From Escherichia coli (lineage in GTDB: Bacteria > Pseudomonadota > Gammaproteobacteria > Enterobacterales > Enterobacteriaceae), in the NCBI RefSeq assembly GCF_044324875.1, contig NZ_CP172185.1: a stretch of 64,000 nt of DNA, one strand, 5' to 3'. The notes beneath the pieces were generated by a model. The model did not search any database. It worked only from the letters and a program-made list of their open reading frames with translations, and was not told the origin of the DNA. The position numbers were made by a program, and so were the translations under genes. Position 1 is the first letter of the stretch; the number at the start of each line of letters is the position of its first letter. Shown piece after piece: positions 2,715 to 11,390 of this stretch.

Positions 2715-3377
2715 ATGGCTTATCGCGACCAACCTTTAGGTGAACTGGCGCTCTCTATTCCTCGCGCTTCGGCTCTGTTTCGTAAATATGATATGGATTA
2801 CTGCTGCGGCGGTAAGCAAACGCTGGCGCGTGCGGCGGCACGTAAAGAGCTGGATGTTGACGTCATTGAAGCTGAACTGGCAAAGCTTGCTGAACAACCG
2901 ATTGAGAAAGACTGGCGCAGCGCCCCGCTGGCTGAAATCATCGACCATATCATCGTGCGCTACCACGATCGCCACCGCGAGCAGCTGCCGGAGCTGATCC
3001 TGCAAGCGACTAAAGTCGAGCGCGTTCACGCCGACAAACCGAGCGTGCCAAAAGGGCTGACAAAATACCTGACCATGCTGCATGAAGAGCTTTCCAGCCA
3101 CATGATGAAAGAAGAGCAGATCCTCTTCCCGATGATCAAACAAGGCATGGGCAGCCAGGCGATGGGGCCAATCAGCGTAATGGAAAGCGAGCACGATGAA
3201 GCGGGCGAACTGCTGGAAGTGATCAAACACACTACCAATAACGTCACACCGCCGCCAGAAGCCTGCACCACCTGGAAAGCGATGTATAACGGCATTAATG
3301 AACTGATTGATGACCTGATGGAGCACATCAGCCTGGAAAATAATGTGCTGTTCCCACGCGCGCTGGCGGGTGAGTGA
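2715..3377 (+). CDS. ytfE: Iron-sulfur cluster repair di-iron protein YtfE (RIC)
   Basis: 220 aa [36 protein letters not shown]...; hemerythrin-like repeats. Confidence 0.93.
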
Positions 3378-3384
3378 TTTGTTC

Positions 3385-3418
3385 GATCAACGATCCTGAC
3401 ATGGGCAGGATCGTTGAT
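3385..3418. terminator. Hairpin between convergent ytfE and island gene A (likely bidirectional terminator)
   Basis: Inverted repeat gatcaacgatcctg / caggatcgttgat with a 7-nt loop in the 44-bp gap between two convergent stop codons. Confidence 0.5.
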
Positions 3419-3421
3419 TAT

Positions 3422-4906
3422 TCAGTCATTCAGTGGAAATAATTCATTGTTGTAACTGGTGTACTCACCTTCAACGGTAAGCAAACTGCCGTTTTTATCA
3501 AGATGCGCCGCATCGAGTTGTCGAGTCTCATTACGCCGCTTCGCATCACGTACCAGTCCATCGCCTACGTAATAAATATAGTGGTCATCATGAGCAAAGG
3601 TATCTGATAATTGACCATTGGCGTATTTAAACCACGTCCATTGGCCTTTCAGTTCAAAATGCTCAACCGTGTCTTCATCAATAAAATACGTATAGCGATC
3701 GTCATGTGCTAAATAATTTAATGGTGTGCCATCGGGGCTTTTATACCACTGCCATTGCCCATTAATATCAAAAATAGTCACATCATCGCTCGCAATGAAA
3801 TAAACTTTATCCCCTACAATATTAACACCTTCCTGTAATTCTTGTTGCGGGTCTGGTAAATGAATGACCGACAGCGTTTTTTCGACCGCAGAAACATACT
3901 TCACCAGATAGAGCGAATCTTTATATTGCGCCACATTCTCCGTCAGCGGGCGAAAATATTCCGGATCAACATCAGGAATAGTCGCAACCCGGCAGTCATT
4001 AGCACGCCTGGAAGCATCACGCGTCAACCATGTTACTTTATCCCGCTGCAGGTCAAACGTACTCCGACAATTTTTACCGAACGCATAACGTTTCTCCCCG
4101 TCTTTATCGCGATAAATTAGCAGTGAACCGGCTATCCAGCGCACAATATGAAAGGTATCCGGATCGGCGTTGATGGCATCTCCATTCACAAAGACCTGTG
4201 ATTTAGTCCGCCAGATTGTATCCCAGGGTCCCGGATTACTTTTGCTTTGGCAGCTATTGGGGGAAAATAAAATAATTCGTCGGTCCCAGGATTTAACGCC
4301 AAGAATAGAATACCCTTGCGCACTGCCCAACCAGTGCCCCTGAAAGTAAATATTGTGACGATCTTTCAGCACATCCGCGGAATCACCTGAACCGCCGACT
4401 TGTTGCAACGAATCCATATCGACCTGCTTTTCGTCGCGATTATCATCCGTGCGTTCACCATCAAAATAGAGACTATCTTTATCGGCGGCAAAACGCCCCC
4501 ACGCGCGGAATGTTGCAACATCAACTTTCGGTGTTCCCGGCGGGTTCTGGACTATTTTCCCTGCCCATAAAATATGGCGGCCATCGGTTAACCAGTCGAA
4601 ACGCCAGCCGCCATTTGACCGATAGCCAGAGAAGGGAGCCACCCGCACAAAATCATTATTGATATCATCAGGTGAATCGTATTCACCATCAGTGCCGTTG
4701 GGTACGCGGCGAAGTTGTTTGAACTTTACCTGCGGCAAATGAATATCCGGAAAATCGATACCGTAACCGTCACTATCTTCAACGATATATTTTGTGCCTT
4801 GCCCCCACGGCTGGTAGTAAAACGCAGCATAAGGCACGCCGGAGCAGGCTATCGAAGCGGTTGAAAATAAAGCCAGTGCGAGACAAACGGGTTTAATTGG
4901 CAACAT
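3422..4906 (-). CDS. Secreted/lipoprotein-like protein of unknown function, island paralog A (494 aa), repeated DK..Y(F/Y) and W.W aromatic motifs
   Basis: Long uninterrupted ORF; N-terminal hydrophobic signal (MLPIKPVCLALALFSTASIACSG); shares several conserved blocks with the upstream gene (WLTDGR.ILWAGK, FAADK.S.YFDG.RTDDN, HWLGSA.G, VDPEYF); absent from K-12 at this locus as I recall. Confidence 0.7.
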   Translation of the reverse strand: MLPIKPVCLALALFSTASIACSGVPYAAFYYQPWGQGTKYIVEDSDGYGIDFPDIHLPQVKFKQLRRVPNGTDGEYDSPDDINNDFVRVAPFSGYRSNGGWRFDWLTDGRHILWAGKIVQNPPGTPKVDVATFRAWGRFAADKDSLYFDGERTDDNRDEKQVDMDSLQQVGGSGDSADVLKDRHNIYFQGHWLGSAQGYSILGVKSWDRRIILFSPNSCQSKSNPGPWDTIWRTKSQVFVNGDAINADPDTFHIVRWIAGSLLIYRDKDGEKRYAFGKNCRSTFDLQRDKVTWLTRDASRRANDCRVATIPDVDPEYFRPLTENVAQYKDSLYLVKYVSAVEKTLSVIHLPDPQQELQEGVNIVGDKVYFIASDDVTIFDINGQWQWYKSPDGTPLNYLAHDDRYTYFIDEDTVEHFELKGQWTWFKYANGQLSDTFAHDDHYIYYVGDGLVRDAKRRNETRQLDAAHLDKNGSLLTVEGEYTSYNNELFPLND

Positions 4907-4939
4907 AGCATCATCCTGAAGCTGTTAGCGTGTAAGAGG

Positions 4940-6103
4940 TTATTTAAATAAGGGTTTCAGACCGCTCGGGGGTTGCTTCACCGTAGACCATTCTGCTGAA
5001 ATGGGGTTGTAACGCAGCCATTCAGTTTGCTCGTAGTGTTTTCCGTCGATTGTGGTTAATCCACTAAGTTCGTGACTGTAGAGTTGCCCGTCTGTAGTGA
5101 TATACATGTAGCCAGTTACCATGCTTTCCCTATCTAATAATTCAAAAACATCCTCTGGCTTGGGTGTTATCAGTTCACCTTCACCTAATGCATTGGTTTT
5201 AACCTTATAGAATTGATCTTTGTAATAGCCTACCGACCCGGTAAGTAAGGTAAAATATTCCGGATCAACTCCTTTAAGCGTTTCATAAACACAATCACTG
5301 CCCGCAGGCGTCGCTTCTTGTTTGAGCCTGGACACATTCTTCAAACCGATATTAAATAACGCACAACTGTGACCAATATCTTCCAACGTATAGTCATGCT
5401 CGCCGCTTTTATCGCGATAAACTAACCGTTCGCCAGGCATCCAGCGGATTATCTGAAAGGTTTTGCGATCGGCGGGCAGCGGCTTGCCATTAACAATCAC
5501 CTGCGAATTTGTCATTACAACAAATTGCAGGGATGAATCATGCCGCAGGATTTGAAACCCGTCAGCGCTGCCCAACCAGTGCCCCTTATGCCAAAGACTA
5601 TTTTTATCACGCAGTAAATTCCAGATGTCCGTCTCTTCAAGCGTTGACATATCCACCTGCTTATCACCGCTATTATCATCGGTACGCTGGCCGTCAAAAT
5701 AGATACTGCGTTTATCAGCAGCGAAAGCGCCGAATGCCTTAAAACTGGCGGCATCGACATTAGGTTCACCGGATGGATTTTTCAGGACTTTGCCTGCCCA
5801 AAGGACAGAACGTCCATCGGTGAGCCAGGTATGCTGGCAATCCCCCTCGTCATCACAGTCGAACTTATCGGGATTAAAATCGGAGAGCAGCCGGGTTTCT
5901 TGTTTATTGGCTAAATTGGCAATGCGCCAGAGGCGGGAAAAATTAACGTCTGGTAATTCGGAGAGGATCTCATCTTCTTTTCCCTTCTGTTCGGCAACGT
6001 AAACCGTGCCTTTTTCATGCTGGCGGTAATAAAAATCCGCGCCCCAGGAAGGTGAAATGGAGAGAGGTAATGCGGCGATTAATAACCAACTGCGCTTAAC
6101 CAT
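4940..6103 (-). CDS. Secreted protein of unknown function, island paralog B (387 aa from MVKRSWLLIAALPLSISPSWGA)
   Basis: Track ORF 4940..6331; start placed at the internal Met that begins a Sec-type signal peptide; paralogous to 3422..4906; lies 33 bp upstream of it on the same strand (probable two-gene operon). Confidence 0.65.
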   Translation of the reverse strand: MVKRSWLLIAALPLSISPSWGADFYYRQHEKGTVYVAEQKGKEDEILSELPDVNFSRLWRIANLANKQETRLLSDFNPDKFDCDDEGDCQHTWLTDGRSVLWAGKVLKNPSGEPNVDAASFKAFGAFAADKRSIYFDGQRTDDNSGDKQVDMSTLEETDIWNLLRDKNSLWHKGHWLGSADGFQILRHDSSLQFVVMTNSQVIVNGKPLPADRKTFQIIRWMPGERLVYRDKSGEHDYTLEDIGHSCALFNIGLKNVSRLKQEATPAGSDCVYETLKGVDPEYFTLLTGSVGYYKDQFYKVKTNALGEGELITPKPEDVFELLDRESMVTGYMYITTDGQLYSHELSGLTTIDGKHYEQTEWLRYNPISAEWSTVKQPPSGLKPLFK

Positions 6104-6195
6104 AGTGAACTCTGCAACGAGTGGCAAAGATTCACGGTAAGCTCGCGCCTGAGGGCTGTCTATGATGGTAGATATTTTTAAGAATATATAAAGAC

Positions 6196-6217
6196 AAAGG
6201 CACCCGCAGGTGCCTTT
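6196..6217 (-). terminator. cycA rho-independent terminator
   Basis: Hairpin aaaggcacc-cgc-aggtgccttt immediately downstream of the cycA stop, followed on the minus strand by a T-rich tract. Confidence 0.6.
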
Positions 6218-6236
6218 CAGAGCTATAAACGCAGCA

Positions 6237-7640
6237 TTACTTCGCCATGCGTTTTTTACCAATAAACAACCAGCCCAGCCCCAGAGCGATAAACCACAGC
6301 GGGGTAACCAGCAGCGCCTGGCGGGTATCATCTTCCAGTGTCAGCAGCACGACCACGAACACAAAGAATGCCATACATACCCAGCACATCAGCTTGCCGA
6401 GCGGCATCTTGTAGATCGACTTATCATGCAGGTGTGGACGCTGTTTGCGGTACACCAGGTACGAGCAAAGGATAATCGTCCAGACGAACATAAACAGAAT
6501 CGCGGAAACGGTTGTAATCATCGTGAACGCGCCAATCACGCTGGGATTCACATACAACATCACCACGCCGCCGAGCAGACAGATACAAGAGAAGGTCAGC
6601 CCTTTCGCGGGTACTGCGCGCTTAGAGAGTTTAGCGAACGCTTTCGGTGCCACACCTTCCTGCGCCAGACCAAACAGCATACGGCTGGTAGAGAAGACAC
6701 CGCTGTTAGCGGAAGACGCCGCAGAGGTCAGCACCACAAAGTTGATCACGCTGGCAGCCGCAGGCAAACCTACCAACACAAACAGCTCAACGAACGGGCT
6801 TTTCTCCGGGACTACCGAACTCCACGGCGTCACGGACATAATCACAATCAACGCGAAGACGTAGAACATAATGATACGGATCGGAATGGAGTTAATCGCG
6901 CGTGGCAGTGATTTCTCTGGATCTTTGGTTTCCGCAGCTGTTGTACCTACCAGCTCAATCCCCACGAAAGCGAAAACCGCTATCTGGAATCCGGCAAAGA
7001 AGCCACTTAAACCTTTCGGGAACCAGCCGCCGTCATTCCACAAATGCGCGAATGACGCTTCTACACCGGTCGGTGACTGAAAGTGCATCGCCACCATGAC
7101 CAGGCCGACGACTATCAGCGACACAATGGCGACGATTTTGATCATCGCAAACCAGAACTCCATCTCACCGAACATTTTCACGGTGGCGAGGTTGAGCGTC
7201 AGCAGCAGCACTATCACCGCCAGCGAGGCGACCCAGTCGGAGAGATCGGGGAACCAGAACTGAGCATAAGCCGTGATCGCCACCACGTCTGCCATACCGG
7301 TTACAACCCAGCAGAACCAGTAAGTCCAGCCGGTGAAATATCCTGCCCACGGCCCGAGTAAATCGGAAGCGAAGTCACTAAAAGATTTGTATTCCAGATT
7401 CGAAAGCAGCAATTCCCCCATTGCCCGCATCACGAAAAAGAGCATAAAACCAATGATCATATAAACAAAAATGATCGACGGCCCGGCAAGGCTAATCGTT
7501 TTGCCGGACCCCATAAACAACCCCGTACCAATGGCACCGCCAATGGCAATAAGCTGAATATGTCGGTTTGTGAGATTGCGCCGTAGCGACTGTTCAGCCG
7601 GAGCCTGATCATCGGCAACGACTTTTACCTGATCTACCAT
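6237..7640 (-). CDS. cycA: D-serine/D-alanine/glycine:H+ symporter CycA (APC family)
   Basis: 467 aa ORF, MVDQVKVVADDQAPAEQSLRRNLTNRHIQLIAIGGAIGTGLF...; amino acid permease signature. Confidence 0.95.
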   Translation of the reverse strand: MVDQVKVVADDQAPAEQSLRRNLTNRHIQLIAIGGAIGTGLFMGSGKTISLAGPSIIFVYMIIGFMLFFVMRAMGELLLSNLEYKSFSDFASDLLGPWAGYFTGWTYWFCWVVTGMADVVAITAYAQFWFPDLSDWVASLAVIVLLLTLNLATVKMFGEMEFWFAMIKIVAIVSLIVVGLVMVAMHFQSPTGVEASFAHLWNDGGWFPKGLSGFFAGFQIAVFAFVGIELVGTTAAETKDPEKSLPRAINSIPIRIIMFYVFALIVIMSVTPWSSVVPEKSPFVELFVLVGLPAAASVINFVVLTSAASSANSGVFSTSRMLFGLAQEGVAPKAFAKLSKRAVPAKGLTFSCICLLGGVVMLYVNPSVIGAFTMITTVSAILFMFVWTIILCSYLVYRKQRPHLHDKSIYKMPLGKLMCWVCMAFFVFVVVLLTLEDDTRQALLVTPLWFIALGLGWLFIGKKRMAK

Positions 7641-7948
7641 GTTTTTTTCTTCCTGTACCTGTCTGTGTTGTTCAGGCTCTACGGCCTTTAGTCAGTCTAT
7701 GATACGACGAATCTGTATCGGGACTCATCGATATTAGGTAACAATACGCGGGATGAATACTAAGATTTAGATCTAATGTTAATGTTATGTTTAAAGTGAG
7801 TGTCATATCACGGTGATAACGCGAAACAGCTCACAAAAATACACGCTTACGGGGTCTTTGCAACACAAAATAGCGCCGTTTGGCAAACTGAAGGGTTTAT
7901 TGCTGAATGCCTGCTCCCCTCTGGCTCGAGGGGAACAGAATGCGCTGC

Positions 7949-8569
7949 TTAGAGGATTTCCAGCAGTTCGACTTCAAACACCAGGGTGCTGAACGGAGGG
8001 ATGGACGCGCCTGCGCCACGCTCACCATATGCCAGTTCCTGCGGGATAGTCAGTTCCCATTTAGAACCTACCGGCATCAGAGTCAGCGCTTCAATCCAGC
8101 CTGGGATCACGCCGTTAACCGGGAATTCAGCTGGCTCGCCGCGAGCAACGGAGCTGTCAAACACGGTGCCGTCGATCAGTTTTCCGGTGTAATGAACACG
8201 AACGCGGTCGGTACGTGCCGGAATTGCGCCTTCGCCCTGGTTGATCACGCGGAATTGCAGGCCAGATTCGGTGCTATTCACACCTTCTTTTTTGGCGTTT
8301 TCTTCCAGGTATTTCACACCTTCAGCAGCCATCGCCTGGAAACGCTGACGACGAACGGCATCGGCGCGTTCGTGGATTTCACGCAGCGCGCGGTGCACCA
8401 CATCAACCGGAACAGCCGGATGTTTGCCTTCCAGCGCATCAGCAATGCCTGCAACCAGTGCTTCTGGCAGCAGCCCTTCCAGGCCAGATTCACTCAGTTG
8501 TTGCCCTACCTGCAAACCAATGCCGTAGCTTGCTTGCGCTTCGATGGTGTCAAAAGTTGGGGTGGTCAT
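7949..8569 (-). CDS. fklB: FKBP-type peptidyl-prolyl cis-trans isomerase FklB
   Basis: Track ORF 7949..8728; start moved to [20 protein letters not shown]... giving 206 aa; FKBP domain at C-terminus. Confidence 0.92.
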
Positions 8570-9425: not shown

Positions 9426-9525
9426 ATGAAGGGTCAACCAAAAGCCAGCTAAGGATTGTCTCTTTGATGACCTTACGTCTGGCTTCCAGTGCCTGAGGTG
9501 AAACCATACTGATATGTTGACATCC

Positions 9526-9547
9526 TCCACGCCCTGAAGGACGTGGA
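9526..9547. repeat. IS200/IS605 subterminal hairpin, tnpB-proximal (presumed RE)
   Basis: 6-bp stem TCCACG/CGTGGA with loop CCCTGAAGGA, 25 nt beyond the tnpB stop. Confidence 0.7.
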
Positions 9548-9571
9548 TCCCTGCTACGTTCAGGCTGTCGC

Positions 9572-10768
9572 CTAAATCATTTCGGGGGGTTCCTGCTTCA
9601 ACGAGCGGCCTGACTGCACCATCTCTCCACAGGCAAGAACGGCGTGCCCCGCCGCTAAAATGTTACGAGCGCCATTTACATCGGCGTTCGCTGTATATCC
9701 ACATGCCTGGCATCTGAATTTACTTTGTGACAGGCGATTTTCTTTCGCTGTATGACCACAGCACGCGCAACGCTGGCTTGTGTACGCTGGCGGAACAGCA
9801 AGCACCTGACCGCCACGCCAGAGCTGCTTGTACTCAAGCTGGCGGCGCATTTCATACCAGCCCTGATCCAGTATCGAACGGTTTAAACCTGATTTTGCCC
9901 GGACATTGCGCCCCGGCTGGCTGACCGTACCCGCTGCTGACTTTGACATGTTGCTGACCTTCAAATCCTCAATGACTATCATTGCGTGGTTTTTGCTGAC
10001 GGTCGTTGTGACTTTGTGAAGGTAGTCCCTGCGGATATTTGCGATACAGGAATGCAGTCGCTGTATTTTGCGTTTCTGCTTCTGCCAGTTATTGCTGAAT
10101 TTGACCTTGCGGCTTAACTGTCGCTGAAGTCTCGCCAGCTTCTTCTGGTTTTTCTGAAAACTGTTTACAGGCTCAAAGACTGTGCCATCTGACAGCGTGG
10201 CGAGTTTAGCCACGCCAGCATCCAGCCCGACCATTGATGCTGAAGGGTGAACCGGAGTTGATACTTCATTTTCAGTCTGAATACTGATGTACCACTTACC
10301 GCAGGACTGGCTGACAGTGACATTTTTCACAACACCCGTGACCTGACGGCTATTCCGGTAGCGCATCCAGCCAAGTTTCGGCAGAAAAATACGGCTGTTT
10401 TCCTGATCGAGCTTAACGCCCTGCGGGTAGCGGAATGCATCATTCTGTCCCCGCTTTTTGAATCGGGGAAAAGCAGCCCGCTTCTGGAAGAAGTTTTTGT
10501 AAGCCCGCTCAAGGTCTTTCAGTGACTGTTGCAATGGCTGTGAGGGCGAATCTTTAAGCCATTGCGTTTCAGTGGCGTTTTTCCACTCAACCAGCCAGGA
10601 AGCCATTTTCCCGTAAGGGATGTATTTATTACCGGCCTCATGATTCTCATTCTGACGTGCCAGAGCACGATTGAAAACGAAACGACATGCGCCTGCGAAG
10701 CGCCTCATTTCACGCTCCTGTTGACCACCGGGTCTTAACTGGAATTTAAATGCCTGTAGTCGTTTCAC
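9572..10768 (-). CDS. tnpB: IS200/IS605-family TnpB (OrfB), RuvC-like RNA-guided nuclease family
   Basis: 398 aa; N-terminal [13 protein letters not shown]..., RuvC-I-like IEDLKV, C-terminal zinc finger CACCGH...CQACG and RuvC-III-like DVNGARNI; full length with no internal stops. Confidence 0.9.
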
Positions 10769-10775
10769 AGGCCAA

Positions 10776-11390
10776 ATGATACTTTGGTCTGTGAGAAAAG
10801 AAACCGATATCCGGCGTGGAAGGCATTGTGTTTTCCTGATGCATGTTCACCAGGTCTTTGTCACCAAATACCGACGTCAGATTTTTGACCATGACGCGAC
10901 AGAAAAACTACGCACTTACTTTTCAAATGTATGTGCTGATTTTGAAGCTGAACTGGTTGAAATGGATGGCGAACCAGATCACGTCCATTTGTTAATTAAC
11001 TATCCTCCCAAACTGGCGATATCCAGTCTGGTAAACAGCCTCAAAGGCGTATCGGGTAGGTTACTGCGACGAGATCGACCAGATATTGCAGTCAGGTATT
11101 ACTACAAAGGCGTTTTGTGGAGTCCTGGCTATTTTGCCAGTAGCTGCGGAGGTGCGCCAATATCCGTCATCCGCCAATACATTGAACAACAGCAAACACC
11201 TGATCAGGTGGAAAACCGCGCCTTATATCCCCGCCCTGAAGGACGGGGTTTTACGGCGCACCGGATAAACCAGGCCAAGCGTATGCTGGTTGATCAAATA
11301 ATATCCCCCAAGCGCAGCAATATTAATATTCACCTGCAATGGGTCGATATCTGGCTTAAAAATATTGTGTTTCCTCCCTTCATCCAATAA
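10776..11390 (+). CDS. tnpA: IS200/IS605-family HuH transposase TnpA; ORF reads through the subterminal hairpin, so the functional C-terminus is uncertain
   Basis: HuH motif ([11 protein letters not shown]) and catalytic Tyr region ([22 protein letters not shown]); about 55 extra codons follow and cross the 11229..11248 hairpin. Confidence 0.75.

Follow-up and report, generated by a model that had tools for sequence, protein, structure and literature searches.

What makes the CycA protein of an Escherichia coli strain end at residue 467, when its K-12 counterpart has 470 residues, at the very point where a two-gene block begins? Both D-cycloserine and D-serine enter the cell through CycA. The locus lies in the stretch of 64,000 nucleotides of E. 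coli DNA analysed here, hereafter called the window. A preliminary description of it had placed a two-gene insertion directly after the cycA stop and had proposed that the junction may have replaced the last few codons of the gene. The question is thus whether the short end of this protein is an error, the scar of an insertion or a cycA end in its own right.

The window gene is cycA by every criterion examined, namely sequence identity, synteny, RefSeq name and Pfam. BLASTP aligns its product with K-12 CycA at 464/467 identities (~99%), the sole differences being E405D and the residues after R464. The AA_permease domain (PF00324) is matched over residues 27-466 with an E-value of 1.9e-134 and a score of 449.3 bits against a cutoff of 24.6, and the gene order ytfB-fklB-cycA...ytfE-ytfF is common to the window and K-12. 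The K-12 MG1655 gene (NC_000913.3, 4429864..4431276; NP_418629.1) measures 1413 nt, encodes 470 aa and ends in ...GKKRAAELRK, whereas the protein of the window ends in ...WLFIGKKRMAK (full ORF end LGWLFIGKKRMAK) after 467 aa. A sequencing, assembly or ORF-calling error that would yield an apparently short CycA was considered, and no evidence supporting it was found. The finished genome of strain 118UI is 100% identical to the window over positions 5900..6600 (701 bp), the RMAK tail recurs in 626 complete genomes as well as in other species, and 467-aa CycA proteins are annotated by RefSeq, which names that of strain 118UI cycA (WP_000228342.1) and holds another one under WP_000228344.1. The short CycA is therefore not an artefact, and the probability left to such an error is negligible.

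The position at which the two chromosomes part was mapped by blastn, using 8 kb of the K-12 region against the window. Homology to K-12 is lost at window position 6250 and regained at 3378. The block delimited in this way (Table 1), hereafter the islet, has a G+C content of 46.3%, compared with 52-53% on either side. The 65 bp of K-12 for which it stands in are composed of the last 22 nt of cycA and of a 43-nt spacer with one hairpin, GCTGGATGGCGCAATGCCATCCAGC-TTTT. The short allele of K-12 comprises the last six cycA codons, for AAELRK, the stop and one bidirectional terminator common to cycA and ytfE. On the other side of the islet, the stop codon of ytfE is located 1 nt from the block boundary.

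Table 1. Features of the cycA-ytfE region of the window, with the evidence on which each one is based.
Feature	Coordinates	Strand	Basis and remarks
ytfE (Fe-S cluster repair protein), intact	2715..3377	+	RefSeq annotation of 118UI mapped to the window
Whole variable block, 2,871 bp	3379..6249		blastn against K-12; stands in for 65 bp of K-12
Perfect 13-bp inverted repeat ATCAACGATCCTG / CAGGATCGTTGAT	3386..3418		Between the DK2 stop and the ytfE stop
DK2, 494-aa paralogue of DK1, lipoprotein-like signal (…STASIAC/SG)	3422..4906	-	Pfam; lipobox predicted from the sequence
DK1, 387-aa DKNYY-domain protein, signal peptide MVKRSWLLIAALPLSISPSWG/AD	4940..6103	-	Pfam; RefSeq start 6103
Spacer 5' of DK1, 92 bp (presumed promoter/5' UTR)	6104..6195	-	Position only
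cycA intrinsic terminator AAAGGCACC-TGCG-GGTGCCTTT, then GTCTTTATAT	6196..6217	-	Terminator scan; 19 nt past the stop
Haplotype-specific cycA end, codons 462-467 and TAA	6237..6257	-	Codon comparison, blastn break
cycA (D-serine/D-alanine/glycine:H+ symporter), 467-aa allele	6237..7640	-	ORF, K-12 identity, Pfam, RefSeq

The end of the gene was then compared codon by codon between six islet-bearing sequences (the window, E. coli L105 and HS, E. fergusonii, E. marmotae and E. albertii) and five islet-free ones (K-12, L100, L103, L104 and the divergent Escherichia genome L005). The reading from codon 462 onwards is AAA AAA CGC ATG GCG AAG TAA in islet-bearing E. coli and in E. fergusonii, and AAG AAG CGG GCT GCT GAA CTG CGG AAA TAA in islet-free K-12. 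The remaining Escherichia sequences compared fit either pattern with minor variants only, such as ATA in E. marmotae (tail RIAK) or ACT at codon 465 in L104 (tail TAELRK). Fixed differences between the haplotypes set in at codon 462 (window 6257), and the protein sequence is affected from codon 465 onwards (MAK vs AAELRK). Upstream of this point, at codons 452, 455 and 458, the SNPs are shuffled between the islet-bearing and the islet-free classes; the haplotype boundary must therefore be placed between window 6257 and 6269, and linkage extends no deeper into cycA. The islet-free L103 resembles the window more than do some islet-bearing strains when codons 1-464 are compared, and over the last 142 nt it is nearer to it than the islet-bearing HS or L105. 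These results bear out the preliminary description where it gave the window protein 467 aa ending in GKKRMAK against 470 aa for K-12 (ORF and BLASTP agree), where it expected a C-terminus different from the K-12 one, the alignment giving MAK and AAELRK instead of identical ends, and where it located the junction within 6237..6260, an interval that contains both the blastn break and the beginning of the fixed differences.

Several other accounts of this region were discarded along the way. The last ~600 bp of cycA are 94-95% identical to K-12, and an imported tract could be suspected there; the SNPs concerned, however, also occur in islet-free strains. A recent import from E. albertii was rejected as well, the window cycA being no closer to that species than the K-12 gene is, except over the last 66 bp. 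The similarity of the two Escherichia haplotypes after codon 464, evaluated by Smith-Waterman alignment with 1,000 shuffles, is not significant (p 0.57 for K-12 vs the window, 0.08 for the best pair), and a 9-nt indel relating the two tails, possible by eye, was abandoned on the basis of these same values.

The content of the islet is simple. The hairpin that follows cycA fits, as a pattern match, a rho-independent terminator with a 9-bp stem (5 G-C pairs), a 4-nt loop and then GTCTTTATAT, and it is conserved in islet-bearing Escherichia. The spacer located between this hairpin and DK1 carries an inserted REP-like sequence in the HS, E. albertii and E. marmotae variants. A mechanically called ORF at 4940..6331, overlapping cycA, was not retained for DK1: its 5' extension crosses the terminator, and the start given by RefSeq is 6103. 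At the other end, the perfect inverted repeat presumably acts as a bidirectional terminator for the convergent DK2 and ytfE genes. It is kept in E. fergusonii, E. marmotae and other E. coli, and the arms of the ytfE-side hairpin, AACGATCCTG / CAGGATCGTT, can be recognised in the Salmonella islet described below. No Rfam family was found in window 3000..8000. An inverted match of 37 nt at 70% between positions 5890-5926 and the end of cycA was judged to be due to chance. The annotation of the block lists two genes only, both DKNYY or hypothetical, with neither an integrase nor a transposase among them, and a search for att-like direct repeats, a target-site duplication or end repeats linking the boundaries 3379 and 6249 found none. 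The block thus falls outside the classical integrase-type islands: of the three defining features, atypical composition is present and the other two are absent.

Both genes of the islet encode proteins that pass the gathering threshold of the DKNYY family (PF13644), with 28.0 bits for DK1 and 32.3 bits for DK2 against a cutoff of 25. DK1 is named 'DKNYY domain-containing protein' by RefSeq and is 35% identical to DK2. The AlphaFold (AF2) model of DK1 is all-beta with a pLDDT of 78, and a fold search of the PDB with this model returned nothing at E < 0.001, with TM-scores <=0.19. A beta-propeller or Kelch-type kinship was considered for DK1, most of the top-ranked PDB matches being of this kind, and was set aside, none of them being significant. 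In the literature searched, the function of DKNYY proteins is not described and the name appears only in passing. Between the window and Salmonella, DK1 and DK2 are respectively 51% and 58% identical, and CycA 95%. More generally, the DKNYY proteins show 51-58% identity between the two genera and 77-98% within Escherichia. The alleles of DK1 cut across species: identity is 79% between two alleles from E. coli and reaches 98% between an E. coli allele and one from E. albertii, a distribution consistent with recombination between species. DKNYY paralogues are also found in Klebsiella spallanzanii, at a different locus.

The frequency of the two haplotypes was evaluated in a survey set of 5,426 complete E. 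coli genomes. The RMAK tail is found in 626 of them (~11.5%), the islet junction including the start of DK1 in 624 and the K-12 junction in 4,788. The linkage of the tail with the islet is nearly complete in E. coli, and the same association is observed in further E. coli contigs examined beside an identical YtfE, where a 467-aa CycA goes with the islet and a 470-aa CycA with its absence. The full two-gene block is limited to 268 genomes. Other tail-bearing genomes include the form of HS and O111:H8, in which a DK1 pseudogene, a REP-like insert and an unrelated 355-aa gene are present, likewise paired with a 467-aa CycA. The cycA-ytfE site is thus a hotspot, if a small one, in which no fewer than three states occur.

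This analysis can be extended beyond E. coli, using one genome per species together with look-ups of DK1 relatives. The same two-gene block is present at this site, beside a 467-aa CycA, in E. albertii and E. fergusonii (both GKKRMAK) and in E. marmotae (GKKRIAK), and Escherichia sp. E4385 likewise carries the islet at this site. In Salmonella enterica, a two-gene islet at this site accompanies a 467-aa CycA ending in …FLRKNKLAK. Among ten Salmonella contexts sharing one common FklB, nine are islet-free with a 469-aa CycA (…IGKKRMAGMR) and one has the islet with 467 aa; the two haplotypes are 96-100% identical in every 150-nt interval until they break abruptly at about codon 457. Across Escherichia and Salmonella, the pairing is therefore that of the islet with 467 aa, and of its absence with 469 or 470 aa. 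No DKNYY gene was found between cycA and ytfE in the other genera sampled (Citrobacter, Enterobacter, Klebsiella, Pluralibacter, Kluyvera and others). Islet-free Salmonella resembles Citrobacter, with its RMAGMR tail and REP-like repeats.

Is the short tail a real cycA end, or does the gene simply run into foreign DNA until a stop is encountered? Among 80 relatives, the total length of CycA ranges from 463 to 478 aa. A CycA of 467 aa ending in KKRLAK exists in Klebsiella oxytoca and Pluralibacter, which are islet-free, and a KKRMAG[MV]R tail in Citrobacter, Enterobacter and Salmonella, whose codons CGK ATG GCR are matched by CGC ATG GCG in the window. In the islet-bearing Salmonella the break falls at another codon, and CycA nevertheless ends in ...LAK at exactly 467 aa. 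The hairpin of the cycA terminator, GGCACCTGCGGGTGCC, is similarly informative: in 1.34 Mb of loci searched with <=2 mismatches, it occurs almost only 3' of cycA. An identical 21-mer of it lies between cycA and ytfE in the islet-free Mangrovibacter, and K. oxytoca has GGCGCCTGCGGGCGCC, with a compensatory change in the stem, directly adjoining ytfE. The 65 bp of K-12 with their hairpin were found, among the loci compared, in islet-free Escherichia only. The likeness of the tail to other genera spans only 3-5 codons, the best short match being the K. oxytoca tail with a shuffle p of ~0.03, and that of the hairpin could in principle reflect convergence of a GC-rich stem. Taken as sequence comparisons, these data indicate that the islet-linked tail is probably a true alternative 3' end of cycA with its terminator, and not island DNA read up to a chance stop. 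They also suggest an order in which an authentic cycA 3' end and its terminator come first and the DKNYY genes follow. The two remaining claims of the preliminary description have to be amended accordingly. The islet does adjoin cycA, but a 133-bp spacer containing the terminator hairpin comes before the start of the first gene at 6103. The boundary is indeed situated in the last codons, with tail and islet linked (626 vs 624 genomes), but an overwriting of these codons by island sequence is unsupported, in view of the KKRMA and ...AK tails and of the dedicated terminator found elsewhere.

The favoured explanation, to which a probability of about 0.7 is given, is that the cycA-ytfE gap is a polymorphic site where alternative, non-homologous alleles are exchanged by recombination, the tail being genuine and transport probably unchanged. 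The short allele, as in K-12, would be the 65-bp segment and the long one, as in the window, a 2.87-kb segment made, from cycA, of codons 462-467, their own terminator, the two DKNYY genes and the hairpin ending DK2 and ytfE. These alleles would be exchanged by homologous recombination, both inside single Escherichia species and from one of them to another, with a parallel exchange inside Salmonella; the conserved coding sequences of cycA and ytfE would serve as recombination arms. Block exchange of this kind would account for the sharp boundaries, the lack of mobility functions, the mosaic flanks and the DK1 alleles shared across species. On the cycA side, a boundary inside the gene would be tolerated if the short, basic, cytoplasmic tail following the last hydrophobic segment or TM helix (residues ~441-461) is under weak constraint, as may be presumed because tail length varies across the relatives of CycA. 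An earlier, classical insertion is still needed, because the block is richer in A+T and is absent from this site in other genera.

It can be argued instead that this insertion is the whole story, a single foreign segment having entered a K-12-like ancestor with deletion of the 65 bp, so that MAK and its stop would be island sequence read to the first stop codon. The composition of the block, the absence of the islet between cycA and ytfE in every genus sampled other than Escherichia and Salmonella, and the lack of significant similarity between the haplotypes after codon 464 (p 0.08-0.57) all agree with such an event, as do the 470-aa tails of the form ...xxLRK that are common in other genera. 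It would nevertheless leave unexplained why the tail matches real CycA ends elsewhere (KKRMA..., KKRLAK and stop), why the Salmonella islet, broken at another codon, still gives ...LAK and a stop at 467 aa, and why a dedicated terminator follows at once, with positional counterparts in the islet-free K. oxytoca and Mangrovibacter. Moreover, the 65 bp of K-12 have no counterpart outside Escherichia among the loci compared, and neither target-site duplications nor mobility genes accompany the block. A single insertion is consequently held to be unlikely. Turning the polarity around, the islet could be ancestral to Escherichia, and perhaps to Salmonella too, the K-12 form having arisen by loss of the islet and replacement of its tail. 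The location shared by E. coli, E. albertii, E. fergusonii, E. marmotae, Escherichia sp. E4385 and Salmonella speaks for this polarity, and so does the deep divergence of the DKNYY proteins (51-58% between genera, 77-98% within Escherichia). The islet haplotype also retains the codons that encode KKRMA in Citrobacter and Salmonella, along with a terminator like that of Klebsiella, and the K-12 hairpin is confined to Escherichia among the loci compared. A plain deletion, however, cannot make the 65 bp of K-12, which are missing from the islet haplotype; the Citrobacter-like character of islet-free Salmonella implies that the islet-free state is the older one at least in that clade, and all the other genera sampled lack the islet. 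An ancestral islet is for these reasons considered quite improbable.

Within the framework of exchanged alleles, a more speculative proposal, tentative and rather doubtful at this stage, is that the cassette is an old presence/absence polymorphism. Balancing or diversifying selection acting on the hypervariable DKNYY proteins would have maintained it in Salmonella as well as in Escherichia, for example if these proteins served, at the cell surface or in the periplasm, as targets in encounters with phages or a host. Recombination would carry its alleles across species, and the swap of CycA tail and terminator would merely hitch-hike or modestly retune the expression of cycA.

With respect to the transporter itself, the tails KKRMAK (window) and KKRAAELRK (K-12) have a similar net charge, and the closest solved structure, LysP (9eyd), aligns to residues 20-414 only, leaving the tail uncovered. 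The transport function is probably unchanged by the tail. As read from the sequence, the real changes are those of the cycA 3' UTR and terminator, the loss of the terminator shared by cycA and ytfE and the gain of two predicted exported proteins. The 467-aa CycA is a normal and widespread allele of E. coli, other Escherichia and some Salmonella, neither a truncation nor an error, and the 470-aa form of K-12 is unsuited as a universal CycA reference. Since CycA takes up D-cycloserine and D-serine, the RMAK tail should therefore not be flagged as a lesion when resistance or virulence is scored. The locus provides in addition a neat case of a replacement polymorphism bounded within the last codons of a gene, and it draws attention to an uncharacterised, fast-evolving pair of predicted exported DKNYY proteins that may merit a study of its own.

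Compared with known systems, the window gene shares with K-12 CycA (b4208, APC superfamily) the AA_permease architecture and the gene neighbourhood, with ytfB and fklB on the upstream side and ytfE on the downstream side. It differs in being no longer directly convergent with ytfE and in having another 3' UTR and terminator. DK1 and DK2 match the Pfam DKNYY family weakly, are far longer than its 141-position model and possess export signals. No report joining cycA, ytfE, Escherichia coli and genomic island was found in the literature searched. Strain-variable islets, or replacement indels, located between core genes and spread by flanking homologous recombination are nevertheless familiar in E. 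coli and Salmonella. The cycA-ytfE block is similar to these enterobacterial islets in being small, AT-rich, sharp-ended and free of mobility genes, with mosaic flanks and several alternative contents. It departs from the usual islets in that its boundary lies inside a coding sequence, giving rise to alternative C-termini, and in that the dimorphism is present in two genera.

The DK1 gene, one of the two paralogous secreted DKNYY-family genes of the islet, is hypervariable when considered with its relatives (P0001-P0041), with alleles that are not sorted by species. Two E. coli alleles share 79% identity and two Salmonella alleles 73%, while an E. albertii allele reaches 98% identity with one E. 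coli allele. This pattern suggests diversifying selection, exchange between species, or both. The ATG at 6103 is the credible start for this gene, giving a product of 387 aa with a signal peptide in agreement with RefSeq. A longer, mechanically predicted ORF of 463 aa, which shares 95 nt with the 3' end of cycA, was rejected because its 5' extension from 6331 crosses the cycA terminator and the RefSeq annotation starts at 6103.

Besides the full islet and the K-12 junction, the cycA-ytfE site has a third state, detected in E. coli HS and O111:H8 (L106). In these strains the 467-aa CycA is kept, a REP-like element lies 3' of the cycA terminator, DK1 is a pseudogene, and the place of DK2 is taken by an unrelated hypothetical gene of 355 aa (WP_001345317.1), for which a Pfam search returned no match. 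The hairpin found downstream of cycA in the window, GGCACCTGCGGGTGCC, is encountered again, with a compensatory stem change, in the cycA-ytfE interval of the islet-free Klebsiella oxytoca, and an identical 21-mer of it is present in that of Mangrovibacter. Among the loci compared, the K-12 hairpin occurs only in islet-free Escherichia.

Within cycA itself, codon 405 encodes aspartate where K-12 has glutamate (E405D), a conservative change located in the loop preceding the penultimate hydrophobic segment. The 3' end of the gene also shows a 37-nt inverted match, 70% complementary, to the DK1 antisense, both segments sharing TTGTTTATTGG; this match is probably fortuitous, as a 3-kb sequence should contain about one 11-mer seed.

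Features and their coordinates (window positions unless a comparison locus, L, is named)
Feature	Position	Strand
DK1	4940-6103	minus
463-aa ORF	4940-6331	minus
cycA-downstream hairpin	6196-6217; L014 ~4216; L056 ~7439 and ~7601	
Inverted match	5890-5926 / 6243-6279	
cycA codon 405	6426-6428	
IS200/IS605-family element	9517-11263	
TnpB/InsQ	9572-10768	minus
Third state, E. coli HS	L003 3104-4704	
K. spallanzanii cluster	L098 3235-8716	

Next to ytfB, an IS200/IS605-family element of 1,747 bp, extra relative to K-12 and carrying TnpB/InsQ with a partial tnpA past it, lies within the ytfA/TetR-family pseudogene. At this site other strains (HS) possess an intact TetR regulator and additional genes, which K-12 lacks.

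Finally, four DKNYY-like paralogues of 495, 425, 439 and 463 aa are clustered in Klebsiella spallanzanii, with dapF and an xerC-like gene of the phage-integrase family close by. This locus is distinct from cycA-ytfE, and the DKNYY family is therefore not confined to that site.
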